Shown: positions 1,564 to 49,191, counted from the first letter of the stretch. The stretch: 64,000 bases of DNA from Psilocybe cubensis (GCA_017499595.2 CM039005.1:372001-436000); one strand, 5' to 3'. Translations and numbers: made by a program. The notes: a model not told the origin generated them from the sequence alone.

Positions 1564-2334
1564 CACAACTGCAAGGCCTCGGTCGGCACTTTCCAGCTCG
1601 TCTAGAGCCCTGCAATTGGGGTATCAACATTTCAAGTTGAATATTGCCAAGAAACACTTTTAATTCTAAAGGTGACGTGAGAGCGCTCCAGGTCACCTTA
1701 CGTATGTCAACTGCGACGCCTACTGCACGTTCCACAGCATTTCCGGACGCCATTCGACAAAAACGGGGCTTAGAGACTAGAGGCAGTAATGGAAAGACAG
1801 GCACACGGAGTCAAAAATAGCGTGCCAAGTGCTTTCCGGGGCCATGTGCGCATAAAATAGATACATACCAGGGCAGAAGGGGCAGTTAGGGCGCTCCAAG
1901 CTTTTGACCCTACAATATTGGAGATCCCTAACATTTTCTTCTTCAAAAGTAGGCACAGCGGGGATATTGGTGGAGCACACGACAGTAACTTTAGGAAGAA
2001 TACGGAGGATGACCTGAGAAATTTACGGAGCAACCCCGACACAAGTTCCAGGTTTACCGTCCAAGATATTGCCTGAGAGCCGACTAGAGCAAGCGAAGCG
2101 AAATTGAAATTCAGGTCTTATTCTTTTCTGATTGTCAAAATATCAAAACTAGAAACCCTTTTGTAATTTTATCCTGTCAAATTTTGAGGTGTTCGAGGGC
2201 GTTCGTTGAAACCATACAAAGATTAGGAAGTCGGGCCAAAGTCGGAACAAAATCGGACCTGAAATAGATGCAGAATTCATTCGGAGAATGAATGCATCAC
2301 ACGTGATGACGATAACTCAATGCCATTCAGCAAA

Positions 2335-2426
2335 CACGTCGGGATATTCAGAATATGAAGTTCCCACGAAGTGGGTAATCGAATGTTACAAAATATTTGA
2401 AATATAATAAGGTTTTAAATGATGCA
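2335..2426 (+). repeat. Left terminal inverted repeat (92 bp)
   Basis: CACGTCGGGATATTCAG...TTTTAAATGATGCA is the exact reverse complement of 8162-8253. Confidence 0.95.
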
Positions 2427-2928
2427 GCTTTAGCTGGTGAAGAGAGATTAAGAGTGTGATTCTCTCGCATTAGGTGAGAATAAGCAAAGGAGTGTATGTA
2501 AAGAATGTATGTAGCTAGCAACCTGATGTCAATGATATCAGGGTTTGGGTGGGGAGCACCACCAAATCTGTGAGAGTCTGAGGTCCATGGTGGTCAGCGG
2601 CTAGACAGGGAAAAACAGAACAAATGGGAGACCAACGTGGAAATGCCGTGCGTAACGCTAAGACTCGCTGATTTTGGATGGTGCAACCAACTCGAAATGC
2701 GAGGGAATACTCCATGAGGCTGTGGAAGAGTCCAAAGTGAGCAAGGACCCCCAAAAGACCAGAGTAGGAGGGAAAGCAATGCCCGACGACGCGTCGAGCG
2801 AAATGGAGGACTCCCACACATCAGGAGGCGGGCAATACACGGGGAAAGGAAAAAACGCGACAGAGGAAGAAAACGTAGCAGGAATAGACACTCACGAGAA
2901 ACACAAGTTCACGGGTTGGAACGTCAGT

Positions 2929-5900
2929 TCATCCCCGAACGGGCGGGATGTTGAGTGTAATGCGATTGAACTCCGCAAAACATGCGGAATTCTGAATATA
3001 GGGTGCCAGGACCTTGGCGTGCTGGCGGAGATAGTTGGCAAAGGCGTCACTAGACCAACGACCCAGTGCCTTCACCACCTCAAAGGGGACCCCGCGGAGC
3101 AAATACTCCAACACCGCGCCAATACGCAAGCCATGTCCGTGCAGCGGTTCAAGACCTGCCGCTGCTGCCGCCTTCTTGATGCGATCCAAAAAGGCTGTTC
3201 TTGTGAGCGGCCGCCGTTTACCAGATGCCGCGTGTGTGTAAGAGAAAAGAGACTCATTGCTGAGAGGGGAGTTGATAAGAAAGTGGTTGGCGAGAGCGGC
3301 TTCGGGATCAGATGGGCCATCTTGACGGGCCCAATACACCTCCTCGCCATCCGTGGGTGCACACTTTGTGCGGGGGATGAAGAAAACGGTTGTAGCATTG
3401 CCGGCGCGGTCGGTTACATAAGAAATGTTGGACTTCTTCACATGAGCATCAGGGTCAAAGGAAGCGAGGTTGCGAACTGTGAATTCGCCCAGGCGTGCGG
3501 CCGACCAGAAAGTTGACGTCAGACAAGCAAAAACGGCGGCGTCGAGTGGGACAGCAAGGTCAAGATGAGTCCGTATCGAGCTGATAATAGAAGGAGTGAA
3601 AGGTGCCCGCTTGGGGCGACGAGAGGAACGAGGTGCAAGCTTCATGCCAGCGGCAAGGGCGGCATCCACTTCAAGCTTGTTGTACACAAGCTGATGCCCA
3701 TGAAGTGTATGCCATGCACGAATGCCATAGAACATGTTAGAAACCTGCGCACCAGAGTACAGACCCGCGCACGAGGAGAGAAAGGCAAGGAGAAGGATGT
3801 TGGTTAATGGGCAGCGCTGTTCCTCGGGAACTTCACGAAGATCACACCAGACATGAAAAACAAGAAGCGCACTGCCATATGCGCTACTCGTTCCATCAGC
3901 ATATCGAGCACCCAGGACAGTAAGAACGCGGTCTAGATCATGTTCTGACAGAGGAACAGCATGACCTGCAGCGTCGAAGGCGGTCCGCGACGTTGCTGGG
4001 ACCCATTTGAGCAAGCGCTCCGCAGCTACACAGTGTGGGCAAAGTGGGGATGGAGCTGGTACCAGATCTGCACGGTATGGACGGGCGCGACGTCGAGAGG
4101 AAGGAGACTTCGTGGGCAAAGCAGGTCTCAAAGGGGAAAGGAGAAGCGCACGCGAGCGACGGGGTGTGATGGGGTTACCCAGCACGGCTGTCCCAGTGCG
4201 GGCGATAGAGCTCAAGTTCGTCAACGAAGAGCCGCGCGTTAGTCGGCTCTCGCGATGGGCGATCAGCTGCTGGAACTCTGTGTTTGAGGGTTTGGCTAGA
4301 AAACGCGGCGGATCTGGTGGTGGTTGCAGCGGGGCTGTCAAAACTGACAATGAGGTCGTGGAGACACGAGGGCAAGGTACATGGTGGGAGAAGAAGCGAC
4401 TGCGACGGATAGATGCCCCGTGAGGGGCCGTCGGCTGGATTGTCATCGGAGGGGACGTATGCTGTAAAGATGGACTCATCGCGGTTGTTGCTGGAGAGAA
4501 ACGCGAGTATGCGTTTGAAGACCGTGTTGACGGCTGGATTTCTGCTCCGCCGGTTCCACCAACCTTCAACAACGCCCATGTTGTCTCCGTAGATTCGGAG
4601 GCGAGGGGTGTCTGGTGCAATGGCACAGAGTGTGTAGACAAGAAGCTCGAAGCCGACAGCTTCAGCCCATCCAATATCCCGTTTGCCATTAAGGGTCTGC
4701 CATCCGGGAAGAAGGCACCATGCACGCCAGCGGTTTCCAATGATGATTGCGATGCCAAACCCAGAGCTGGCGTCAGAGAAGGCTCTGACATCAGTGACCG
4801 CAACCGGGACTGGGATGGGACGCGCGAGGATGGGTTGAGATAATTTTCCCTTCCACCACTCGAGGTCGGCAGCAAGTGATTTGGGTGCGTGGCGAAGAGC
4901 GAGAGGACGCAAACTGGTGGCAAATCCACGGAGCATTGCTTCAAATCCAGTGAGATACGCGCGTCCAGCGGGAACCACACAGGTACAGTGGAGAAGCTTC
5001 CCATACAGTTTTTGGACGTCTTCGAGAGAATGTTGAGACGCAGACAACCACGCCGCAATAGCATCCAGGTATTTTGACTTCTTGCTGCCTTCAATGCACA
5101 CTGTGCGAGTTTCAAGGCACCACCCATAACCTGTGAAAGTGGCATAAGATGAGAAAGGTATGTCTTTAGCAGCCTCCCATGGTGTCCCGGTCTCTGAAGA
5201 AATAGAATCGATATCTGCAAAGCAATAAGAAAAACGGCTATCCTCCAGGGACCTGGAGGAAACCTGAGAGAGGTCCTGCAAAGGAAAACGGCAATCATCA
5301 TCAGATTCCTCAACCGTGCCATCCACCAACAAGCCTCCAGTATAAAACACCCGACCACCCGAAAACTGAGGGCCCGACTCAGCAAACCGAACCGCAGCGC
5401 GGGTACGCTGTGCATTGTACTGTAAAAGAAACTTGCGAAGAATGCGAATGAAAAGATGATCATCAACCCACTTGGTGATGGGGCCAATGCCACGAGAGCG
5501 AAACACATCCACTGTGGCATCTTGAATGAGGCCAAACACACCGCCGGATGGTGATGCCCCAAACGCGCCTCGGGTGTCAACGCAAAACTGGTCATCTCCA
5601 ATGCGGACAGCAGCAGCAGGCCACTGCGAAGGATGCAGAGGTACGGTGCGGAAGGCCTCAGATACATCCCGCACGGCAAGCTGTGATCCAGGTGGAAGAC
5701 GGCCCAGAAGCAGAGATACAACCGAAAAGGAACCCCAGGTGCAAGGAAAATTGGAAGCACAGGTATATGAATTGATAGAAGGGTTGGGAAACGAGGAGGA
5801 AGGTGAGGAGGGAAAGGAGAAATTCTGAATGATGCGGAATTTTCCTGGGCGGCCTGGCTTTGGAATGATCGAGAAAGGAGAAGTTTGGAAAGGGCCGATG

Positions 5901-6354
5901 AGAGATTCAAGATCGGCCCTCGTGAAAGGACCAATATAACGACCTTTCTCGAGCTCGAGTGCAATAATGTCATTGAACTCTTGTTGGAATTGCTTGACAG
6001 ATGGGCGATTAGGTGGGGATTGAGTAATGGAAATAGAAGGAAAATCAAAAATGAAACCGTGTTGAAACCCGTATACAAGAAAAGGGTATTTTTGGTGAAG
6101 GCCAGACTCGTCAAGTAAGCGCTTCCAAGTGGCAGCTGGGTAGAGACACTTAATTTGAGTGCGCCTGAGCTCGAGAGCATTTCTGGGCGCCATGGGTGAA
6201 TGAACCACACCCTGAACAGCGGTGTCTGTCTCCATGGCTGGACTGTGTGCACCCTTGTGTGGTCTGCCAATCGAAGCAGAGGGTCTGGCGCGAAGATTTG
6301 ACGACGAGTGTTCTGCCCTCGCGGTCTGCGAAGGACGGGTGACTTCCATCCCAA
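2929..6354 (-). CDS. Tyrosine recombinase ORF of the retroelement (YR domain in ~2929-3950; true start unknown)
   Basis: Catalytic motifs FWSAARLGEF (R), RTKC (K), GHGLRIG (H-x-x-R), LGRWSSDAFANYLR (W, Y). The frame stays open across most of the RT ORF. Confidence 0.9.
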   Translation of the reverse strand: MGWKSPVLRRPRGQNTRRQIFAPDPLLRLADHTRVHTVQPWRQTPLFRVWFIHPWRPEMLSSSGALKLSVSTQLPLGSAYLTSLAFTKNTLFLYTGFNTVSFLIFLLFPLLNPHLIAHLSSNSNKSSMTLLHSSSRKVVILVLSRGPILNLSSALSKLLLSRSFQSQAAQENSASFRISPFPPHLPPRFPTLLSIHIPVLPIFLAPGVPFRLYLCFWAVFHLDHSLPCGMYLRPSAPYLCILRSGLLLLSALEMTSFALTPEARLGHHHPAVCLASFKMPQWMCFALVALAPSPSGLMIIFSFAFFASFFYSTMHSVPALRFGLLSRALSFRVVGCFILEACWWMARLRNLMMIAVFLCRTSLRFPPGPWRIAVFLIALQISILFLQRPGHHGRLLKTYLSHLMPLSQVMGGALKLAQCALKAARSQNTWMLLRRGCLRLNILSKTSKNCMGSFSTVPVWFPLDARISLDLKQCSVDLPPVCVLSLFATHPNHLLPTSSGGRENYLNPSSRVPSQSRLRSLMSEPSLTPALGLASQSSLETAGVHGAFFPDGRPLMANGILDGLKLSASSFLSTHSVPLHQTPLASESTETTWALLKVGGTGGAEIQPSTRSSNAYSRFSPATTAMSPSLQHTSPPMTIQPTAPHGASIRRSRFFSHHVPCPRVSTTSLSVLTAPLQPPPDPPRFLAKPSNTEFQQLIAHRESRLTRGSSLTNLSSIARTGTAVLGNPITPRRSRALLLSPLRPALPTKSPSSRRRARPYRADLVPAPSPLCPHCVAAERLLKWVPATSRTAFDAAGHAVPLSEHDLDRVLTVLGARYADGTSSAYGSALLVFHVWCDLREVPEEQRCPLTNILLLAFLSSCAGLYSGAQVSNMFYGIRAWHTLHGHQLVYNKLEVDAALAAGMKLAPRSSRRPKRAPFTPSIISSIRTHLDLAVPLDAAVFACLTSTFWSAARLGEFTVRNLASFDPDAHVKKSNISYVTDRAGNATTVFFIPRTKCAPTDGEEVYWARQDGPSDPEAALANHFLINSPLSNESLFSYTHAASGKRRPLTRTAFLDRIKKAAAAAGLEPLHGHGLRIGAVLEYLLRGVPFEVVKALGRWSSDAFANYLRQHAKVLAPYIQNSACFAEFNRITLNIPPVRG

Positions 6355-6601
6355 ATGCGCGGGAGGCGACAGGATCGAAAGTCGTGGGAACGGCGGCCCA
6401 AACAGACAGCGCAGGCGGGCTCCGATGCTGCGCCGCTCCGAAAACCCTGAGGCTGCTTGTTGTTCTCACGGGGTTGGCGGTAGGGAGAAGGAGATCGACG
6501 ACGTTTGGAGTCACGATGATTGCGAGGAGGGCTGTCAGAGCGCATATGGGACTGAGTGGAACGTCCCAACCGATGGGTGTCTGCTCTGTCGTGAGACCCA
6601 C
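4175..6601 (-). CDS. Reverse transcriptase / RNase H ORF of the retroelement
   Basis: SPFSIIPKPGRPGKFRIIQNFS, RDVSEAFR, FGASPSG, WVDD (~5460-5471); RNase H motifs FSDASSGFG, WAEAVG, YGDNMGVV, DNPADGPSRG. Confidence 0.93.
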   Translation of the reverse strand: MGLTTEQTPIGWDVPLSPICALTALLAIIVTPNVVDLLLPTANPVRTTSSLRVFGAAQHRSPPALSVWAAVPTTFDPVASRAFGMEVTRPSQTARAEHSSSNLRARPSASIGRPHKGAHSPAMETDTAVQGVVHSPMAPRNALELRRTQIKCLYPAATWKRLLDESGLHQKYPFLVYGFQHGFIFDFPSISITQSPPNRPSVKQFQQEFNDIIALELEKGRYIGPFTRADLESLIGPFQTSPFSIIPKPGRPGKFRIIQNFSFPSSPSSSFPNPSINSYTCASNFPCTWGSFSVVSLLLGRLPPGSQLAVRDVSEAFRTVPLHPSQWPAAAVRIGDDQFCVDTRGAFGASPSGGVFGLIQDATVDVFRSRGIGPITKWVDDHLFIRILRKFLLQYNAQRTRAAVRFAESGPQFSGGRVFYTGGLLVDGTVEESDDDCRFPLQDLSQVSSRSLEDSRFSYCFADIDSISSETGTPWEAAKDIPFSSYATFTGYGWCLETRTVCIEGSKKSKYLDAIAAWLSASQHSLEDVQKLYGKLLHCTCVVPAGRAYLTGFEAMLRGFATSLRPLALRHAPKSLAADLEWWKGKLSQPILARPIPVPVAVTDVRAFSDASSGFGIAIIIGNRWRAWCLLPGWQTLNGKRDIGWAEAVGFELLVYTLCAIAPDTPRLRIYGDNMGVVEGWWNRRSRNPAVNTVFKRILAFLSSNNRDESIFTAYVPSDDNPADGPSRGIYPSQSLLLPPCTLPSCLHDLIVSFDSPAATTTRSAAFSSQTLKHRVPAADRPSREPTNARLFVDELELYRPHWDSRAG

Positions 6602-7774
6602 CCCATTTTGCTAGTGCGTCGGACTGGACAGCGAGTAAAGCATAAACAGCAAAGTATAAGGCATAAAGCGGAAAGCAGGGTGCATGGTTGGAGAGAGTAA
6701 GGGTCGAGAAAATAAAGCAGCGGTGATAAAGCGGCGGGGGGTAAAGCAAAGAACGGCAAGCAACGAGCGTAAAGCAAACGGCGTGTAAAGCAATATGTGT
6801 GATGCACGGGGGAGCAGAATGAAAATAACAGCGGGTTAGTTTGATACACTACTGAGAAAGAGAGGAGCACGCACCCTCGCTAGTTCGTGTTGTGCATCTC
6901 TGGCATCGCGGTCGTCGTCTATAACCTTGGCTTTGATTTTCCTGTACAGCTCGTCGCTGAAGCCCGCCAGATCCCAGCCTCCTTCACCGGATGCAATGGA
7001 GATATGCCAATCCTTGCGAATACTCTCCTGGTAGGTAAAAAGCGCGAGGCGATTGAGGCGACCAGGGTCAAAACGCGACGAGTGGTTCTCGATGCCTTCG
7101 AAAAAACCAATGAACATGAGAACACGTTCGGCTGGCCAGCCGGCGCGGCGAATCGCAGTAATAAATCTGGCAGTGGCAACATGAAATTCCTCCCACGTCA
7201 AGTCTTTATCCGGGACGATGCTGCGTGAGTCTTTAGTTACAAGAGAAGGAACAAACGAGGCAACCCCAGATTTCCAAACAATGGACATGGATTCGTCGGA
7301 CGTGGCGGCATGGGCGCTAGCACGGGCGTCTGCAACGCCGGCATTTGTGAAGTACCAAAGTTCGACGTACTTGGCAGCGTCTAGACGGCGAAGGGCGGCG
7401 GGGTTGATGACGACAGGGAGGTCAACCGGGATTGGGCGATCAAGAACAGGGCAAAACTTTGCTCGGTTCTTTTTCACTTCCTCCAAATGGGCAGCCTCTG
7501 CATCTTGTTTGAGAAGCTGTGCGGCCTGGTCAGCCGCTTCCTTATCGAGGCGCGCGCGTTCCTCGGCCCTGGCAACCTCGTCTTCGCGCTGTGCTTGCCA
7601 CGCGGTTTTTTGAACCTCGTTCATGGCGTGCCATATAGCAGTCAGCGCCGCTACGGCTTGTTCGTCGGTGGCGCCCGGGACGGCAGTTTTGTGGGCGTCG
7701 CGAACGGCTTGAAACGCAGGGAGCGTGTAATCCGGAGGGACAGCGTCCGTAGGATCGTCTACAATGCGTGCCAT
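6150..7774 (-). CDS. Gag-like ORF1, two exons (7774-6875, 6623-6150), C-terminal Cys/His zinc fingers
   Basis: ATG at 7774 (MARIVDDP); YVELWYFT motif; phase-0 intron GTGCGT..TCCAG joins HELAR to SDALAKW; CAVCLGRRSH...C and CSGCGSFTHGAQKC zinc knuckles. Confidence 0.75.
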
Positions 7775-8161
7775 GGCGGGAAATTTTTTCTGAGAGGCCG
7801 ATTTACTGAGTTCTGACGAACAGAGACTGAAAGGAAATTTTCTTGGACGATCTAAGGGTGGATGCGTCCAAAAATTGTTGCTTCGTCTGTGTGGTGAGAG
7901 GGAAAGCGGTGTCGCTCTCACCCGCTGACTCAGCACATAGTAGCCGTTCAGCGATCGTAGCATTTCATTACACTTCACACTGAACATAATTGATATAAAA
8001 TATCTTGGTCTCAAAGAGGATGATTCAGATTTAATATACAAGTCATTCTTGAAATGTACTTTATGTATAAAATTTATCACAACATTCTTTAAAGATTTGG
8101 ATGTTGCCATGTAATTACAATCTTAGTTAACATATGTATTTCTTTTGTATTTAAAGCATGT

Positions 8162-8253
8162 TGCATCATTTAAAACCTTATTATATTTCAAATATTTTGT
8201 AACATTCGATTACCCACTTCGTGGGAACTTCATATTCTGAATATCCCGACGTG
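8162..8253 (-). repeat. Right terminal inverted repeat (92 bp)
   Basis: Exact reverse complement of 2335-2426. Confidence 0.95.
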
Positions 8254-8404
8254 AAATGCACTCCACTTCGATTCGGCGATTCTGAATGTTTTTTTGCGTC
8301 TTGCCTAATCAAAATGGCATAACAAAGTGATCTGAATATTACTTCTATTGCTTATAAGCGGCCAAAGTCCTTTTTATAAGGTAGCTAAAGGCATGCCATT
8401 AAAT

Positions 8405-10410
8405 TTATTCTGCAACCTTCTTAAACTTCATGTAGCAAGGTTCTCCTAGCGGTCGTGCCTATTGAGAAAAAGAAAGTAGGAAAACTAAGTTAAAACAGAG
8501 AACTTGAGGTATTTTGGAAAACGTACCTGCTGGATATCGTTCCTGTCTGGAGTTGGAAGCTGCTTCGGGTACTTCCCGGAACCATCAACGAGTTCATACT
8601 CGTATCCAAGAAGGATTAAAGCCAGGATCAACTTGATCTCAAGTTTCGCGATTTTCATACCAGCACAAGGATGACGGCCTGATGCATCACCACGAAGACA
8701 CTCAAATTTAGCGATTGGGCTTTCTCACAATGGCATAAGCCCAGGATGATACGCACCGACACCCCAGCCAATGAATGCAAAGGTCTCCTTGCGATCTTCC
8801 TCCCTGCCCTCAAGGAACCGTGACGGATCGAACTGCATCGGATCCTTGTATATCTCTGGGTTCAAATGCACGTCTGCGAGCTGGTACGTCAGGAAGTCTC
8901 CGCGCTTGACAGTGACGCCATCAACCGTGACGTCCTTGTGCATGTTCCGCCTAAGGGTAGACCCGGTCGCTGTTATTCTGAGCGTCTCGCGGATGGCAAG
9001 GTCAATGGTTGGGAGTTGTTCTTCCCAAGCGTTGAGCGGGATCGCGGCGAGGCGCTTGTGCAGTGGCTCGGAGGAGAGGGTGTCGGTGTGGTTCGCGACG
9101 AGGGCTTTGAGCTCATCGACGACTTTTTTCTTCCACACTGGGTTTGAGCCGAGGAAGAGAAGAGTCCAGCATGCTATAGGAGATGATATAAGATAAATGG
9201 GCATAATTTATAATGGTAAGAAAATAGAACTTGCAGTTAACCCCGGTGTTGATTACCCCTGCGAAAATTATGCCCATGATGGTCTACAGTTAGGTGGTGA
9301 AGAACATCAATTTGACATCACAAGATCCGCAGCAGGACTAGATGACGTACTCCGATAATAGTATCGTTTGAATCTCCTTGGGCAATAAAGAGGTCGATGG
9401 GGTCTGAGGACGGGACAGTGGCATTACGGCGGCGTTCTACGAAGGAGTTGAATAGATTGTACAGTGCGACCGTCGACTTCTCCTTTGCTCGCTTAGCGGG
9501 GCCAGGGAACCAGGGGAGGAGAAGCGAGACGGGTGTAGCACTCTTCTCGAGGGCCCAGTAATGCTTTGCCAAATCGTTCATCGCCTTGCGATCTTCCGCC
9601 AGCTCCTTGCACGTTGCCATTCGAATGGTCATTTGGAAGACGAGCTAAAGTGAAGACAGAATCTGTTTAGTAGATTAAATGTGTCAACATCCATTTGACT
9701 ACTTGCATCGTAGACTTGGCTGAAAGGGTTGATTTTTCCTTCGGTCCCCCACTCTGTCATTCGAGTGTGCATATCATCGAGAAGAGTAGGCAAAGCTGGA
9801 AAAGTTCTATAATTTAGCCAACTTTGCGCAGTGAAATTTAAGTGCTTGAGTGCCCATACTGTCGGTGATTCTGTCCCTTCTGAGAAGCAATAATAGTCGC
9901 TTTATGAAGCCATCCTCAATATCAGCATCAGTGACGCTGGATTGGACATGAGCATCCTTTAATTCAGGCGCACCACCCATGAGGATTCTGTAGCCTTCCG
10001 ACATGCTGAAACCCGCCTCGTTAAAGTAGACTTTTCGCGACTGCTCTCCATTAAACGCAATCACGCGGTGCTGTCAACAAAAAGACATCCATCGATGGGC
10101 GATGAGTATGCGTCGGGCGACAGCTATGGATCCTCACCTGAAGTACCCGGAAACGGAACGTTTTCCCTCCACTATTCTTGAACTGCTCCCTAATAAAATC
10201 GTACCTCTTGGTAAAGAATGACCATACGGTCAAGATAGGTATCCCTCCAAGATCATAGACCTTTCCATCGTAACTGGGGCGTAGCAACACCGCAGAGAAG
10301 ACAACGACGGAGAGTGCGATGATAACCGCCGCACGCACATCGTTTGACCATTCAGATGGTTTGTTGATGATATTAGCGAGGGGGCTGAAGCTGGCTGAGG
10401 CTGCAGCCAT
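8405..10410 (-). CDS. Cytochrome P450 monooxygenase (multi-exon)
   Basis: N-terminal TM anchor; I-helix GIIFAGVINTG; ETLR (ExxR); FDPSRF; heme motif GWGVG|RHPCAG split by an intron; stop at 8405-8407. Confidence 0.92.
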
Positions 10411-45489: not shown

Positions 45490-48400
45490 TTACATTGGTT
45501 TGTAGAGGGAATTTATCCGCCTAAATAAGTAATCTCCAGCCACCGCCAAGCTATACCAAGCATCTGACTTGCGATATGCATATGCTCTCCTACCCGCACT
45601 AAGTGTCGGCTCCAACATTGTATATGTTTTCCACTTTTTACTCTGATGTATAAAAAATGCAACCATCCATTGCATTTCGTATCGTACCAGTGTCGCCTCT
45701 TCTAGCCACCTGTGATATAACACTCGTGCCCTCAACCAATGTACTCTTTTAACTGTATAGTCGGGTAGTCGGGTCGGAAATTTATAAGCGCCCGTAATAT
45801 ATCATTAAAATAACTCACATTCAAGCACAGTGGCGGGATCTGCTTCCTCTGATAATGTGTTTGGGTCGGCATCGGGAGTAGCTGTCGGATCAAGTGCCCA
45901 CCGCGGTCCGAATCTTTGGTGTACAGAATACCAAATCCATGACAAACGGAATTTGGTTGATCCCGGCAAATTTGGATTAAGAATTGCAGTACTTGATTTA
46001 ATGTCTTCTTTTGTTAAAATGCGCAACTCCTGAAGAATTTCATCATTGGCCCCCAACTTGACAATACGAGTTCGGCAGTGTGAGTATGCCTGCGCATGCA
46101 TTGAAATTTGGTCTTTTAACTCTTTTACCGCCGTTTGACCTCGTGTGCGTACCCCTTTGCGTGGACCCTTTTGGACAACTTCTTTGAACTGGAAAGACCG
46201 CTCTGCTATTAGTTCTCGGATCTGGTTAAGGTGACTTCTAGCTTTTGATATTCTGGCTTCAAGTTCATCTGATGCATAAATTTTGCTTGCAGCACCATTT
46301 GATGGTAAGCATATTGGCTGTAGATCAATATCCTCGTTTACTGTCGGACCCAACCCAGGAGCTAGAACATCTTCTTCGTCTTCCCAGTCAATTAAAATCT
46401 GGTCGGATATGTCAATGTCTTGTCTCCCGGTAGCAACAACACCTGCTTTGGCCTGAAGTTTATTGAGTTGAACCATCAATGTTTTGAGGGAGTCTCGTAG
46501 CTTTTGAAGCTTGACGCGGTCGGTAAGACGATCATGATTGACAAGCCGACGTGCACACATCCGTATGTCCAATCTAAAATATTAAAACTTGCATTAGAAT
46601 AGTTTCACTTAAGATAACTATACATACTGTTTCTCTTCAATCACTAAAGCAAACTGGATCCATGATTGTACTGGAGTCAGTGGTGTAGAAGGACAGGCAC
46701 AGTCACTGGTATTGACTGTCGGAGCGGATCCAGGCCACTTAGCAGTATAAATGTCCATTAGCTTTGGGTCTTGCAATCGATTTTTTTCTACATGTTCAAT
46801 CTGCTGTGTCCATAATTTGATGGCTTCAGGATCAGCAGAGTTGGTAAGATTGGAAAAACATATCCGATATTTGTCTCTTGTTTCTTCAGCTTCTAGATAC
46901 CGTTGGCAAAGATACTTGGTTATTCCAAGAGCCTTTTTGTGGTTGGAATCACATGCATGATCATCAAGTATTTCTGCTTGATGAGCTAATGTTGCCGTTT
47001 GAGCTGCAGGGGATATAGCATTCAAGTCGGCCCACAATGATTCAAGAATCTCTCCGCAGACACAGGAGGCACCAGGAATAAATGTCGGAGCATATCGGAA
47101 AAAGCACTCATCCTTGTGAGCATGGACATGGAACATACCAATTGCTCTGTCAATTTTGAGTCCATTGGGGAGATGGTCCTTAATTCGCTTGAGTAGCCAG
47201 ATGATATACTGGCAGACAATATCATATATAACCATGGTGCCTTGGTCAGGATGGACACCAGTTGATGCAAGTGCAGCTAAAAATGCAAAGTCTACATTTT
47301 TCTGCTGCTCACCTTTAAAAAGATCAACTAGTGCATTTGGAGCATAGCACCCATGTCGGGCACATGCAATGCCGACAATTCCTGTAACATTGCAAGATGA
47401 CTTGGACAATAATGAATTTTGAATTGCATGAAATGTATTCTTGCATGGAGCACCCTAGTATTAGTTAGTTATACTGATTGTCACAGTAAAAAAATGGTTA
47501 AACAGACCGTCAATGCCTCAATAGCAGATTTAAGAAATGCATGGTACTCTGCGCGGTCAGGTATCATGCCACTACCTTCTGAAAGCCAGACATCTCAAGA
47601 TGGCTTTTCTGAGCGAATATGATCAGCCTTGAAGTTTCCATCAGCTACAAATATCCGTTTGTAAACCCAACGATTTGGGTCTTCTCTCCAATTGTCGGGT
47701 AAATTAACTCCAGGTTGTGGGCATGCGGGACAAAAAATTCCAAGTTCTCCTTTTCCAACAGACAGCGCAGCCCTCCCATTATGCCCTGCAAACCCCGACC
47801 ATTTGAGTTTTTTCATCCACCTCCATAGTCGCGACATTCTTCGGAACTCATTGTATAGGTCCACAACACTTGAAGGAAACATTGGATTTGTCACTTGTCG
47901 GATAAGAGAGTAGAACTGATATGCTGATGCCTTGAGTTCTAGGTTGGATAAACGGAAATAGTCTAGAAGCTGGGCGGAGAAAACTGTACGAATGCGGTGA
48001 AAACTTGTTGGCAATAATCGACTTGCAATGAGATCCAGAGGAAGATTGTTGGCTCCATGGCATACACAATAAACCATGGCTAGGTGGTGGACACCATTAG
48101 TATGAATTGCCCGAATATAGGCATTGTTGAGTCCGTCAGTCTTTGGAGTCCCTGTCGGAATGCCTTTGTTTGCCGACTGTGGTCGGAGATATTGAGGCAT
48201 GTCCCGTACATCTGCCTCTGCTTTGCTTACTTCTTCTTCATTGTCACAGTCTTGAATATTGTCTAATGAATGAGGATCTTCTCGGCACCTGTTTAGGTAT
48301 GCCTCAAACTCCTCATCTGTAGGGCCATTTGGATCCAAATTCTCTGGGTCTTCCTCAAGATTTTCCATCTGAATATCAATACTGTTTGTGTATTCTGTCG

Positions 48401-49191
48401 ACTGCTCGATGGGCGCTTGTTTCCATTTCAATTGTTGTAGTTGATTTTGTTCCTCCTCGTCCTTGGTTTCTTCAATATTTTCAAGATAATTAATCTGGAA
48501 GTTCAATGAAGAACATATAGAATCTCCTGTATGATGGGGTATAAGGATATAGGTACCAGTCTCCCATAGCTGAGCCGGCTGGAAGTGTGTGCCTGTCCAA
48601 CATTCCACTTTGTGCAAAGGATTGACGCGGTGAGTATGCCGCATACACTTTCTGCAAATAAGGGATGGTAAGCTACAATCCTTGCACCGCCATACCGCAA
48701 TCAAATTGCTATCACAACTAGAGCAAATAGGAGGTTCAGAATCCTCAGAAATATTGGGTGCTTCTTGGCTCAGTAATGCCCCTAGTAAATCATCCACACG
48801 CAAAACAAATTCGTTAATATAGTCTCGTTGTGTCTATCCACATTATGCTGGTGAGATTACTTTGTAAAATAATAAAATATGTTCATACCTTCCGAATTTT
48901 TGGGACTACATTTTCATCATGGTGAGTTGAAGGTAGACTGTTTTCATCCTGACTAAATCCAGCATCCTTGTTGAATGTACCATGCTCCTGTTCTTCTAAA
49001 CCTATTGGCTTCTTCTTATGAGGTCGATTTGTGGTACTCAAAGAAACCTTCACTAGCTCTGAAACCACCTTTCCTGCTCGCGTGGTTCTGGTTTGATTCT
49101 TGTATGTAACAGCATCTGCTGCATTAGCATCATCTTTGTATAGTGCCTTCTTCCTGGATTTCCTGTTACTTGATGTTCGTTGAGATGGCAT
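45490..49191 (-). pseudogene. CxC2 + KDZ transposase with in-frame TGA at 47595-47597
   Basis: CRKCMRHTHRVNPLHKVECWTG; HTNGVHHLAMVYCVC; CPACPQPGVNLP; ADGNFK; ACARHGCY; YDIVCQY; FHVHAHKDEC; GEILESLW; RARVLYHRWLEEATLVRYEMQW. The reading SEKPS*DVWLSEG continues in frame. Confidence 0.9.

Follow-up and report, generated by a model that had tools for sequence, protein, structure and literature searches.

Introduction

Two groups of retrotransposons that carry a tyrosine recombinase (YR) are the closest described systems for the locus studied here. Ngaro elements have split direct repeats in the order A1-[open reading frames, ORFs]-B1A2B2, leave solo AB repeats, and in Cafeteria burkhardae have been inserted into endogenous mavirus-like elements (EMALEs) bearing terminal inverted repeats (TIRs), as described in one report (PMC8547959); the fungal Ngaro elements of Agaricomycotina are covered in another (PMC3783388). 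DIRS1-like elements have inverted terminal repeats (ITRs) of 66-316 bp, an internal complementary region (ICR), and the same trinucleotide at both ends (PMC3266345, PMC7192593). In this study, a stretch of 64,000 nt from Psilocybe cubensis (GCA_017499595.2 CM039005.1:372001-436000, one strand, hereafter the window) was analyzed, in which positions 2335-8253 hold a retroelement with all of its ORFs on the minus strand, boxed by perfect inverted repeats.

An earlier note on this DNA had offered two readings, either a Ngaro element nested in a short, CAC-terminal miniature inverted-repeat transposable element (MITE) or an undescribed end structure of a YR retroelement. Our results make it probable that 2422-7989 (minus strand) is one Ngaro-type unit nested in an unrelated, AT-rich, multi-copy TIR element. 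The unit runs in the order A repeat, gag, zinc-knuckle ORF, reverse transcriptase (RT)/RNase H, YR, and B repeat. Four things were observed directly: the coding set, an independent multi-copy TIR segment, the unit's own junctions at 7989/2422 and 7829/2753, and the absence of the composite from the other haplotype. What is left of the host amounts to 87-92 bp at the outer end of one arm (2335-2426) plus 264 bp from the other (7990-8253), and most of the host interior is missing. Since the host is a separate element, the perfect arms and the AAA beside them are the ends of the host and its probable 3-bp duplication, not the termini of the retroelement. The host looks like a DNA transposon, and the composite amounts to a nested insertion of the ordinary kind, apart from some odd details at the junctions.

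Results

The Inverted Arms and Their Flanks

The repeat search found a sole inverted pair, 2335-2426 and 8162-8253, which are 92 nt long, 100% complementary, and separated by 5735 nt. A self-BLAST of the element against the window (word size 7) returned the same pair, with the rest at noise level. The first 41 nt of the arm occurred at exactly two sites in the window when up to three mismatches were allowed, while 0 of 100 dinucleotide-preserving shuffles reached two matches. As neither the 41-nt search nor the BLAST found an internal copy of the arm tips in the window, there is no ICR. Split direct repeats were likewise absent from the window in the repeat search and the self-BLAST. These results agree with the earlier note, which by eye had seen identical inverted repeats starting CACGTC with AAA on both sides and had found neither split direct repeats nor an ICR.

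The arm tips read CACGTC, with AAA upstream of 2335 and downstream of 8253. Given that A makes up 0.29 of the flanking sequence, the second AAA would arise by chance in about 2% of cases, and read from the sequence the pair is only suggestive of a 3-bp target-site duplication (TSD). The complementarity of the arms ended abruptly past nt 92, and the comparison of 2427-2596 with the reverse complement of 7990-8161 gave a score of -14 (shuffles, -22 ± 5). The GC content changed in steps, being 0.33 in the arms, 0.24 in the subterminal part, 0.47-0.48 in the A and B repeats, and 0.54 in the interior.

The TIR Segment as a Separate Multi-Copy Family

Positions 1800-8800 were compared with four public runs, namely the contig sets X5 and X7 and the raw-read runs X11 and X12. 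In X11, the depth was 31.3 in the flanks and 13.1 (0.42x) in the interior (2970-7649), and it reached 231 at 7884-8117, 183 at 8118-8351, and 50 at 2502-2735. The corresponding values in X12 were 33.2, 12.4 (0.37x), 248, 242, and 55, so that 7884-8351 stood at 6-7.5x flank depth in these two runs. The flanks were heterozygous, with the other letter at 1954 in 13/30 reads of X11 and 20/42 reads of X12. An interior at about 0.4x depth between heterozygous flanks is therefore consistent with a single hemizygous copy, present on only one of the two haplotypes. X7 showed zero depth in 20/20 interior bins, and a 544-bp contig of the same run covered 7990-8247 at a depth of 296.8, about 9x that of the flanks (25-35).

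The reads that broke at 7990 entered a single non-retroelement consensus (284 reads in X11, agreement 0.99; 322 in X12, agreement 0.98). Loose read ends before 2334/2335 (116 in X11 and 119 in X12) had a consensus agreement of 0.49-0.63, and those behind 8253 (82 and 129, respectively) of 0.44-0.45. This low agreement means that the TIR tips have many different flanks, which were mostly A/T-rich. Taken together, the depth, the X7 contig, and the mixed flanks indicate that the arms plus 7990-8161 form a separate multi-copy family, which is present without the retroelement interior and independently of it. One X7 contig passed the inner end of the arm unbroken, which suggests that the arms of the TIR element are much longer than 92 nt.

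Repeats invite misjoins during assembly, and A2-B2 may have been collapsed; an artefact could thus have misplaced the retroelement between two arms of a repeat. The chance of this is close to negligible, since 94-96% of the sampled words of the stretch were contained in the four runs and the 5-nt overlaps at the junctions are too short for a k-mer misjoin. Moreover, the window-specific A at 8158 was found in 6/329 reads of X11 and 15/433 reads of X12, a share about as expected from one hemizygous copy of the composite.

Boundaries of the Retroelement

Two joints connect retroelement sequences in the runs. A head-to-tail (B-A) joint, leading from 7989 through ACT to 2422, was present in one X5 contig (depth 10.6, flank 10.8), 16 reads of X11, and 17 reads of X12, and in none of X7. 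An A-B (internal-deletion) joint between 2753 and 7829 was present in two X5 contigs, one X7 contig, 5 reads of X11, and 12 reads of X12. The two joints define the A repeat as 7989..7829 and the B repeat as 2753..2422, and they are the junction types of a split-repeat (Ngaro) element and of solo AB repeats. The interior contigs of X5 stop about 29 nt into A and into B, as contigs do where an assembly graph branches, and A and B stood at about 3-4x interior depth. The B-A joint was confined to the three interior-bearing runs (X5, X11, and X12), at about single-copy level, and the solo A-B joint occurred in X7, a run without the interior. This distribution, together with the depth of A and B, fits an A1..B1-A2..B2 arrangement in the strains concerned, where A2 and B2 may have cargo between them.

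The boundary of the unit at 7989 directly abuts the start of the multi-copy segment at 7990. On the left, the boundary at 2422 and the inner arm end at 2426 are no more than 5 nt apart, and the last 5 nt of the arm (2422-2426, ATGCA) overlap the end of the B repeat. As for the B repeat itself, a 106-bp segment (2567-2672) is missing from other B copies (joint 2566 to 2673 in 30 reads of X11 and 27 of X12), and at position 2588 all covering reads have C (26/26 in X11 and 20/20 in X12) where the window has T.

The joints also bear on the idea that the retroelement itself ends in the inverted repeats, in a DIRS1-like or new YR architecture with 92-bp ITRs and TTT (coding strand) at both ends, the short copies being its non-autonomous derivatives. 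Non-autonomous derivatives that share only their termini with the autonomous element are common among transposons, and in the window the arms are perfect and AAA/TTT stands beside both. PMC3266345 gives TTT..TTT with AAA at the circular junction as an example of the DIRS1-like trinucleotide; together with the ITR length, this is why the window resembles DIRS1. However, the element contains no further copy of the arm tips, which an ICR would require, Pfam gave no methyltransferase domain, and the relatives described below have split direct repeats rather than ITRs. The joints of the family at 7989/2422 and 7829/2753 fall inside the arms, and an A-containing contig of X5 enters non-TIR sequence after 7994. 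We therefore regard it as extremely improbable that the arms belong to the retroelement, and the undescribed end structure of the earlier note is not supported.

Junction Overlaps

Both junctions between the nested unit and the TIR element have a 5-nt overlap. ATGCA is common to the inner end of the arm and the end of B, and TTGAT (7990-7994) is common to the host consensus and the A flank in X5. TTGAT (plus strand) adjoins A in two contexts, the host TIR element (7990-7994) and a GC-rich flank in the X5 contig. The shared TTGAT/ATCAA next to A is possibly a recombinase target motif or else microhomology.

The trinucleotide of the B-A joint, ACT, recurs just before 7990 in the host consensus, and there is no ACT at the A/host junction of the window. 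The trinucleotide model, as given in PMC7192593 and PMC3266345, would suit ACT at the first two places. A crossover under this model was considered for the window as well, but it would predict ACT at the A/host junction, from which it is absent, and the fit fails.

The overlaps raise the possibility of integration without a recombinase, in which unit-length A-interior-B DNA (cDNA or a copy of the donor locus) was captured by microhomology while the palindromic TIR element was being repaired at a break or gap, and replaced the interior of that element. The 5-nt overlaps (ATGCA and TTGAT), the loss of both the host interior and A2-B2, and the missing junction trinucleotide all suit such a capture, and retrotransposon cDNA capture at breaks is known in yeast (PMC11372161). 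We nevertheless consider it very unlikely, because the piece ends 0-5 nt from the element's own ends on both sides, which is predicted by recombinase integration and would be surprising for random template switching. Furthermore, the TTGAT overlap depends on one X5 contig, and the shared ATCAA is equally explicable as a target preference of the recombinase.

Coding Content

All four ORFs of the retroelement are open, as the earlier note had observed. The YR ORF matched the Pfam family Phage_integrase (PF00589) over residues 407-483 (E 4.6e-7; 30.2 bits, cut-off 27.1) and by tblastn shared 42-54% identity with the ORF downstream of RT in the relatives. The RT/RNase H ORF had no above-threshold match in the Pfam or PDB profile searches. 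Its AlphaFold2 model, which was built with 20 homologues, had a pLDDT of 76.5 and a folded part that stops near residue 670, and the top Foldseek matches of the model were the RTs of foamy virus, Moloney murine leukemia virus (MMLV), xenotropic MLV-related virus (XMRV), cauliflower mosaic virus (CaMV), and Ty3 (E 5e-11 to 3e-9). In the protein collection, 439 RT homologues were found at E ≤ 1e-3, the best with 65% identity and most with about 50%, including proteins of Agrocybe, Panaeolus, Sparassis, and Rhodofomes.

The zinc-knuckle ORF matched the Pfam family zf-CCHC_4 weakly (E 2.9), and the gag-like ORF matched no Pfam family. The earlier note had seen no methyltransferase-like domain, and indeed no methyltransferase matched the 724-aa RT/RNase H ORF in Pfam at E ≤ 5. 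The further Pfam domains at this threshold in the element were weak noise only, with no protease, DDE integrase, or methyltransferase among them. The coding set of a Ngaro element is thus present, with gag, RT/RNase H, and YR and without those three. A gap of 300-450 bp and a frequent change of frame between gag and the zinc-knuckle ORF are also present in the relatives; they are therefore not damage, and the copy is intact by the standard of its family.

Haplotypes, Strains, and Age

An empty allele was found in X5, in which an 8,260-bp contig bridges 2293 to 8257 via 45 other letters, without the composite. X5 carries only the other allele at every listed flank position, and the whole composite is missing from the other haplotype. 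The interior is nevertheless present in X5, at single-copy depth (9-12) and with 11 listed differences from the window, so that in X5 the retroelement must lie elsewhere; the X5 contig that enters non-TIR sequence runs through A to 7994 before doing so. In X11 and X12, the interior has only 2 listed differences. These counts and the empty allele support the recent event proposed earlier, and the retroelement family is young, polymorphic between haplotypes and strains, and probably still mobile. The left flank is itself strongly polymorphic between the haplotypes, with a 42-bp indel (2135-2176), a 26-bp insertion in the other allele (near 2228), and strong divergence at 2294-2334.

The empty allele could also mean that the composite itself is mobile and that the TIR element carried the retroelement here as cargo of a DNA transposase. 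Both arms and the AAA are intact, the other haplotype has neither the TIR element nor the retroelement, no TIR-only allele was seen, and X5 has the interior at single-copy depth with the locus empty. However, each genome has a single full-length copy, whose depth in X11 and X12 is about 0.4x that of the flanks, and hence there is no sign that the composite has been amplified. In addition, at least one A copy in X5 has a non-TIR flank, no transposase was identified for the TIR family, and two successive insertions on one haplotype fit equally. Transport as cargo is therefore decidedly unlikely.

Relatives in Metagenome Loci

A metagenome scan yielded 80 loci with an RT identity of 41-60%. The similarity was in the coding region only; the arms, untranslated regions, A, and B had no DNA match in the 80 loci by BLAST. 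The full A1..B1A2B2 arrangement was present in three loci (L032, L045, and L049), and partial split repeats or head-to-tail permuted contigs in nine (L071, L037, L055, L067, L070, L009, L080, L005, and L002), so that loci with Ngaro architecture are among the RT relatives. The split-repeat relatives share 44-52% RT identity with the window element. Inverted repeats outside both gag and YR were found in 0/35 loci holding the YR C-terminus; the stretch searched extended at most 1.2 kb upstream of gag and at most 1.8 kb past YR. L037 has an inverted pair with one arm within the element and the other past B2, and L016 has a 133-bp inverted match at both contig ends, 11.5 kb apart, with the far arm 6.2 kb beyond YR. 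According to the earlier note, simple nesting would follow if other RT/YR copies had ordinary split repeats without the TIR and the TIR occurred as an abundant free MITE. Here, several RT relatives have split repeats and none is boxed by inverted repeats of its own, and the TIR segment is multi-copy and occurs in X7 without the interior.

A quick tree was built from 32/80 loci; the others were dropped, their best hit either failing to cover residues 110-600 or being interrupted by stops, and named reference Ngaro sequences were left out. The window element grouped with L001 (support 99), followed by L024/L030. L002/L005, which have partial split repeats, fell in the window's half of the tree, and the full split-repeat family in the opposite half. 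L001 and L003 are one family (80% DNA identity), and both are truncated or rearranged; the same applies to L041, whose ends are not readable.

Several relatives have structural details of their own. In L001 (8-353), the start of gag is inverted and adjoins the zinc-knuckle ORF, and in L003 (3015-4139) about 1.1 kb extra lies between the zinc-knuckle ORF and RT. L005 (4332-5338), when compared with L002, has about 1 kb of unrelated sequence between A2 and B2. Direct overlaps of the two ends were found in L002 (1-366/5465-5830, 91%) and L080 (1-139/5209-5347, 100%), the contigs being permuted or end-overlapping, a pattern that head-to-tail junctions, tandem copies, or circles of these elements would produce.

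Features of the Window

The features of the composite are listed in Table 1. Elsewhere in the window, a DNA transposon is represented by ORFs at 46621-48833 (minus strand), in which a transposase domain of the KDZ (Kyakuja-Dileera-Zisupton) type (E 8e-36) and a cysteine cluster of the CxC2 type (E 4e-16) were recognized. By self-BLAST, this KDZ transposon of the window has no DNA in common with the 92-nt arms. The C-terminal part of a cytochrome P450 gene lies at 8728-9204 (minus strand, E 1.5e-21), and the composite is located about 470 bp past its stop codon.

Table 1. Coordinates of the probable nested Ngaro-type unit and of the TIR element around it, in positions of the window.
Feature	Position	Strand	Basis
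AAA, putative 3-bp TSD of the TIR element, left	2332..2334		Sequence reading; AAA partner at the right side
Left arm, 92 nt, outer remnant of one arm of the multi-copy TIR element	2335..2426	+	Repeat search, self-BLAST, reads
B repeat of 332 bp, forming the 3' terminal region of the unit	2422..2753	-	Joints; depth about 50-55 vs about 13 in the interior
YR ORF, 516 aa, first ATG within the overlap with the RT ORF, stop 2929-2931	2929..4479	-	Pfam
RT/RNase H ORF, 724 aa	4175..6349	-	Foldseek on the AlphaFold2 model; homologues
Zinc-knuckle ORF, 131 aa, in a different frame from the RT ORF, whose start it overlaps	6150..6545	-	CX2CX4HX4C motif; 36-61% identity to relatives
Gag-like ORF, 312 aa, start codon (ATG) at 7774	6836..7774	-	26-36% tblastn identity with the relatives' first ORF
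A repeat of 161 bp, forming the 5' terminal region of the unit	7829..7989	-	Joints
Subterminal part of the TIR element, AT-rich (24% GC)	7990..8161	+	GC, read depth
Right arm, 92 nt	8162..8253	-	Repeat search, self-BLAST, reads
AAA right of the arm	8254..8256		Sequence reading

Discussion

The nesting proposed in the earlier note is supported by the start of the multi-copy segment at 7990 (placed near 7985 in that note), by its occurrence without the interior in X7, and by the retroelement's own joints. The host, however, is not simply a short, empty MITE, as most of its interior is missing from the window.

Several observations weigh against a Ngaro unit nested in a TIR element. A2-B2 is absent from the copy in the window, and with it the repeat pattern that defines Ngaro, and the reads of the B-A joint are not assignable to this copy rather than to another locus. 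In the four runs, neither an intact empty copy of the host nor a TIR-only allele at the locus was seen. The 30 letters available from the interior of the host consensus do not abut the left arm, which does not correspond to a clean insertion into a short MITE. ACT stands at the B-A joint and before host 7990, yet it is missing from the A/host junction of the window. Among the relatives, no split repeats were detected in 7/16 loci whose sequence continues for at least 1 kb past YR (L008, L016, L021, L023, L028, L039, and L063); either copies without A2-B2 are common in the group, or the repeats are too short or decayed to detect. Finally, the nearest relatives L001 and L003 are truncated, and the end structure of the closest lineage is therefore not readable.

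With the nested Ngaro-type unit as the favored explanation, the following course of events may be proposed. The retroelement would copy itself via RNA and cDNA, and YR would integrate it, as in the published model for Ngaro and DIRS. It may have entered the TIR element directly after ATCAA (sense strand). A2-B2 and the remaining host interior would later have been deleted between two TGCAT pentamers, or A2-B2 may have been collapsed in the assembly. Our preferred order is integration after ATCAA, followed by the deletion between the TGCAT pentamers. A different outcome, either a working hybrid of an intact-ended TIR element with a recently active YR retrotransposon as cargo, movable by reverse transcription or by cut-and-paste, or cDNA capture at a break in a palindromic element, is in our view unlikely.

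The nested insertion removes a false lead, as inverted repeats with the same trinucleotide mimic a terminus of the DIRS type, here borrowed from the host element. Furthermore, an agaric genome is shown here to contain a young Ngaro family, with copies that differ at few listed positions per 5 kb and with a possible ATCAA insertion motif. If the loss of A2-B2 is real, the copy should not be able to regenerate its ends under the published model, and it would be a natural test case for that model. If the cDNA were captured instead, ATCAA beside A at two loci would mark the recombinase target or the microhomology used.

When compared with known systems, the host part is like non-autonomous TIR elements of the MITE or foldback kind, with CAC...GTG tips, an AT-rich subterminal part, a depth of about 6-9 fold, varied and mostly A/T-rich flanks, and AAA on both sides. 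Its CAC tips and putative 3-bp duplication recall CACTA/EnSpm or PIF/Harbinger elements, which are DNA-transposon superfamilies with TSDs of 3 bp. The composite is like DIRS1 in its inverted repeats at both ends, with a length within the ITR range, in the same trinucleotide on both sides, in its overlapping ORFs, and in its YR. Unlike DIRS1, it has no ICR and no methyltransferase, its arms belong to a separate multi-copy family, and its RT relatives are split-repeat elements. A DIRS1-like identity was rejected on the first two of these differences; inverted repeats do box the ORFs, and the depth and junctions assign them to another, multi-copy element.

The copy in the window differs from Ngaro in consisting of A-interior-B only. 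In the protein collection, the best identity of the family to any RT was 65%, and the placement among Ngaro elements is based on the relatives. Like Ngaro, the window element has gag, RT/RNase H, and YR and lacks a protease, a DDE integrase, and a methyltransferase, and like the Ngaro elements within EMALEs it is a GC-rich unit within an AT-rich, TIR-bearing host. The B-A and A-B junctions in the reads, the solo A-B in the strain without the interior, and the RT relatives with full split repeats are likewise as in Ngaro.

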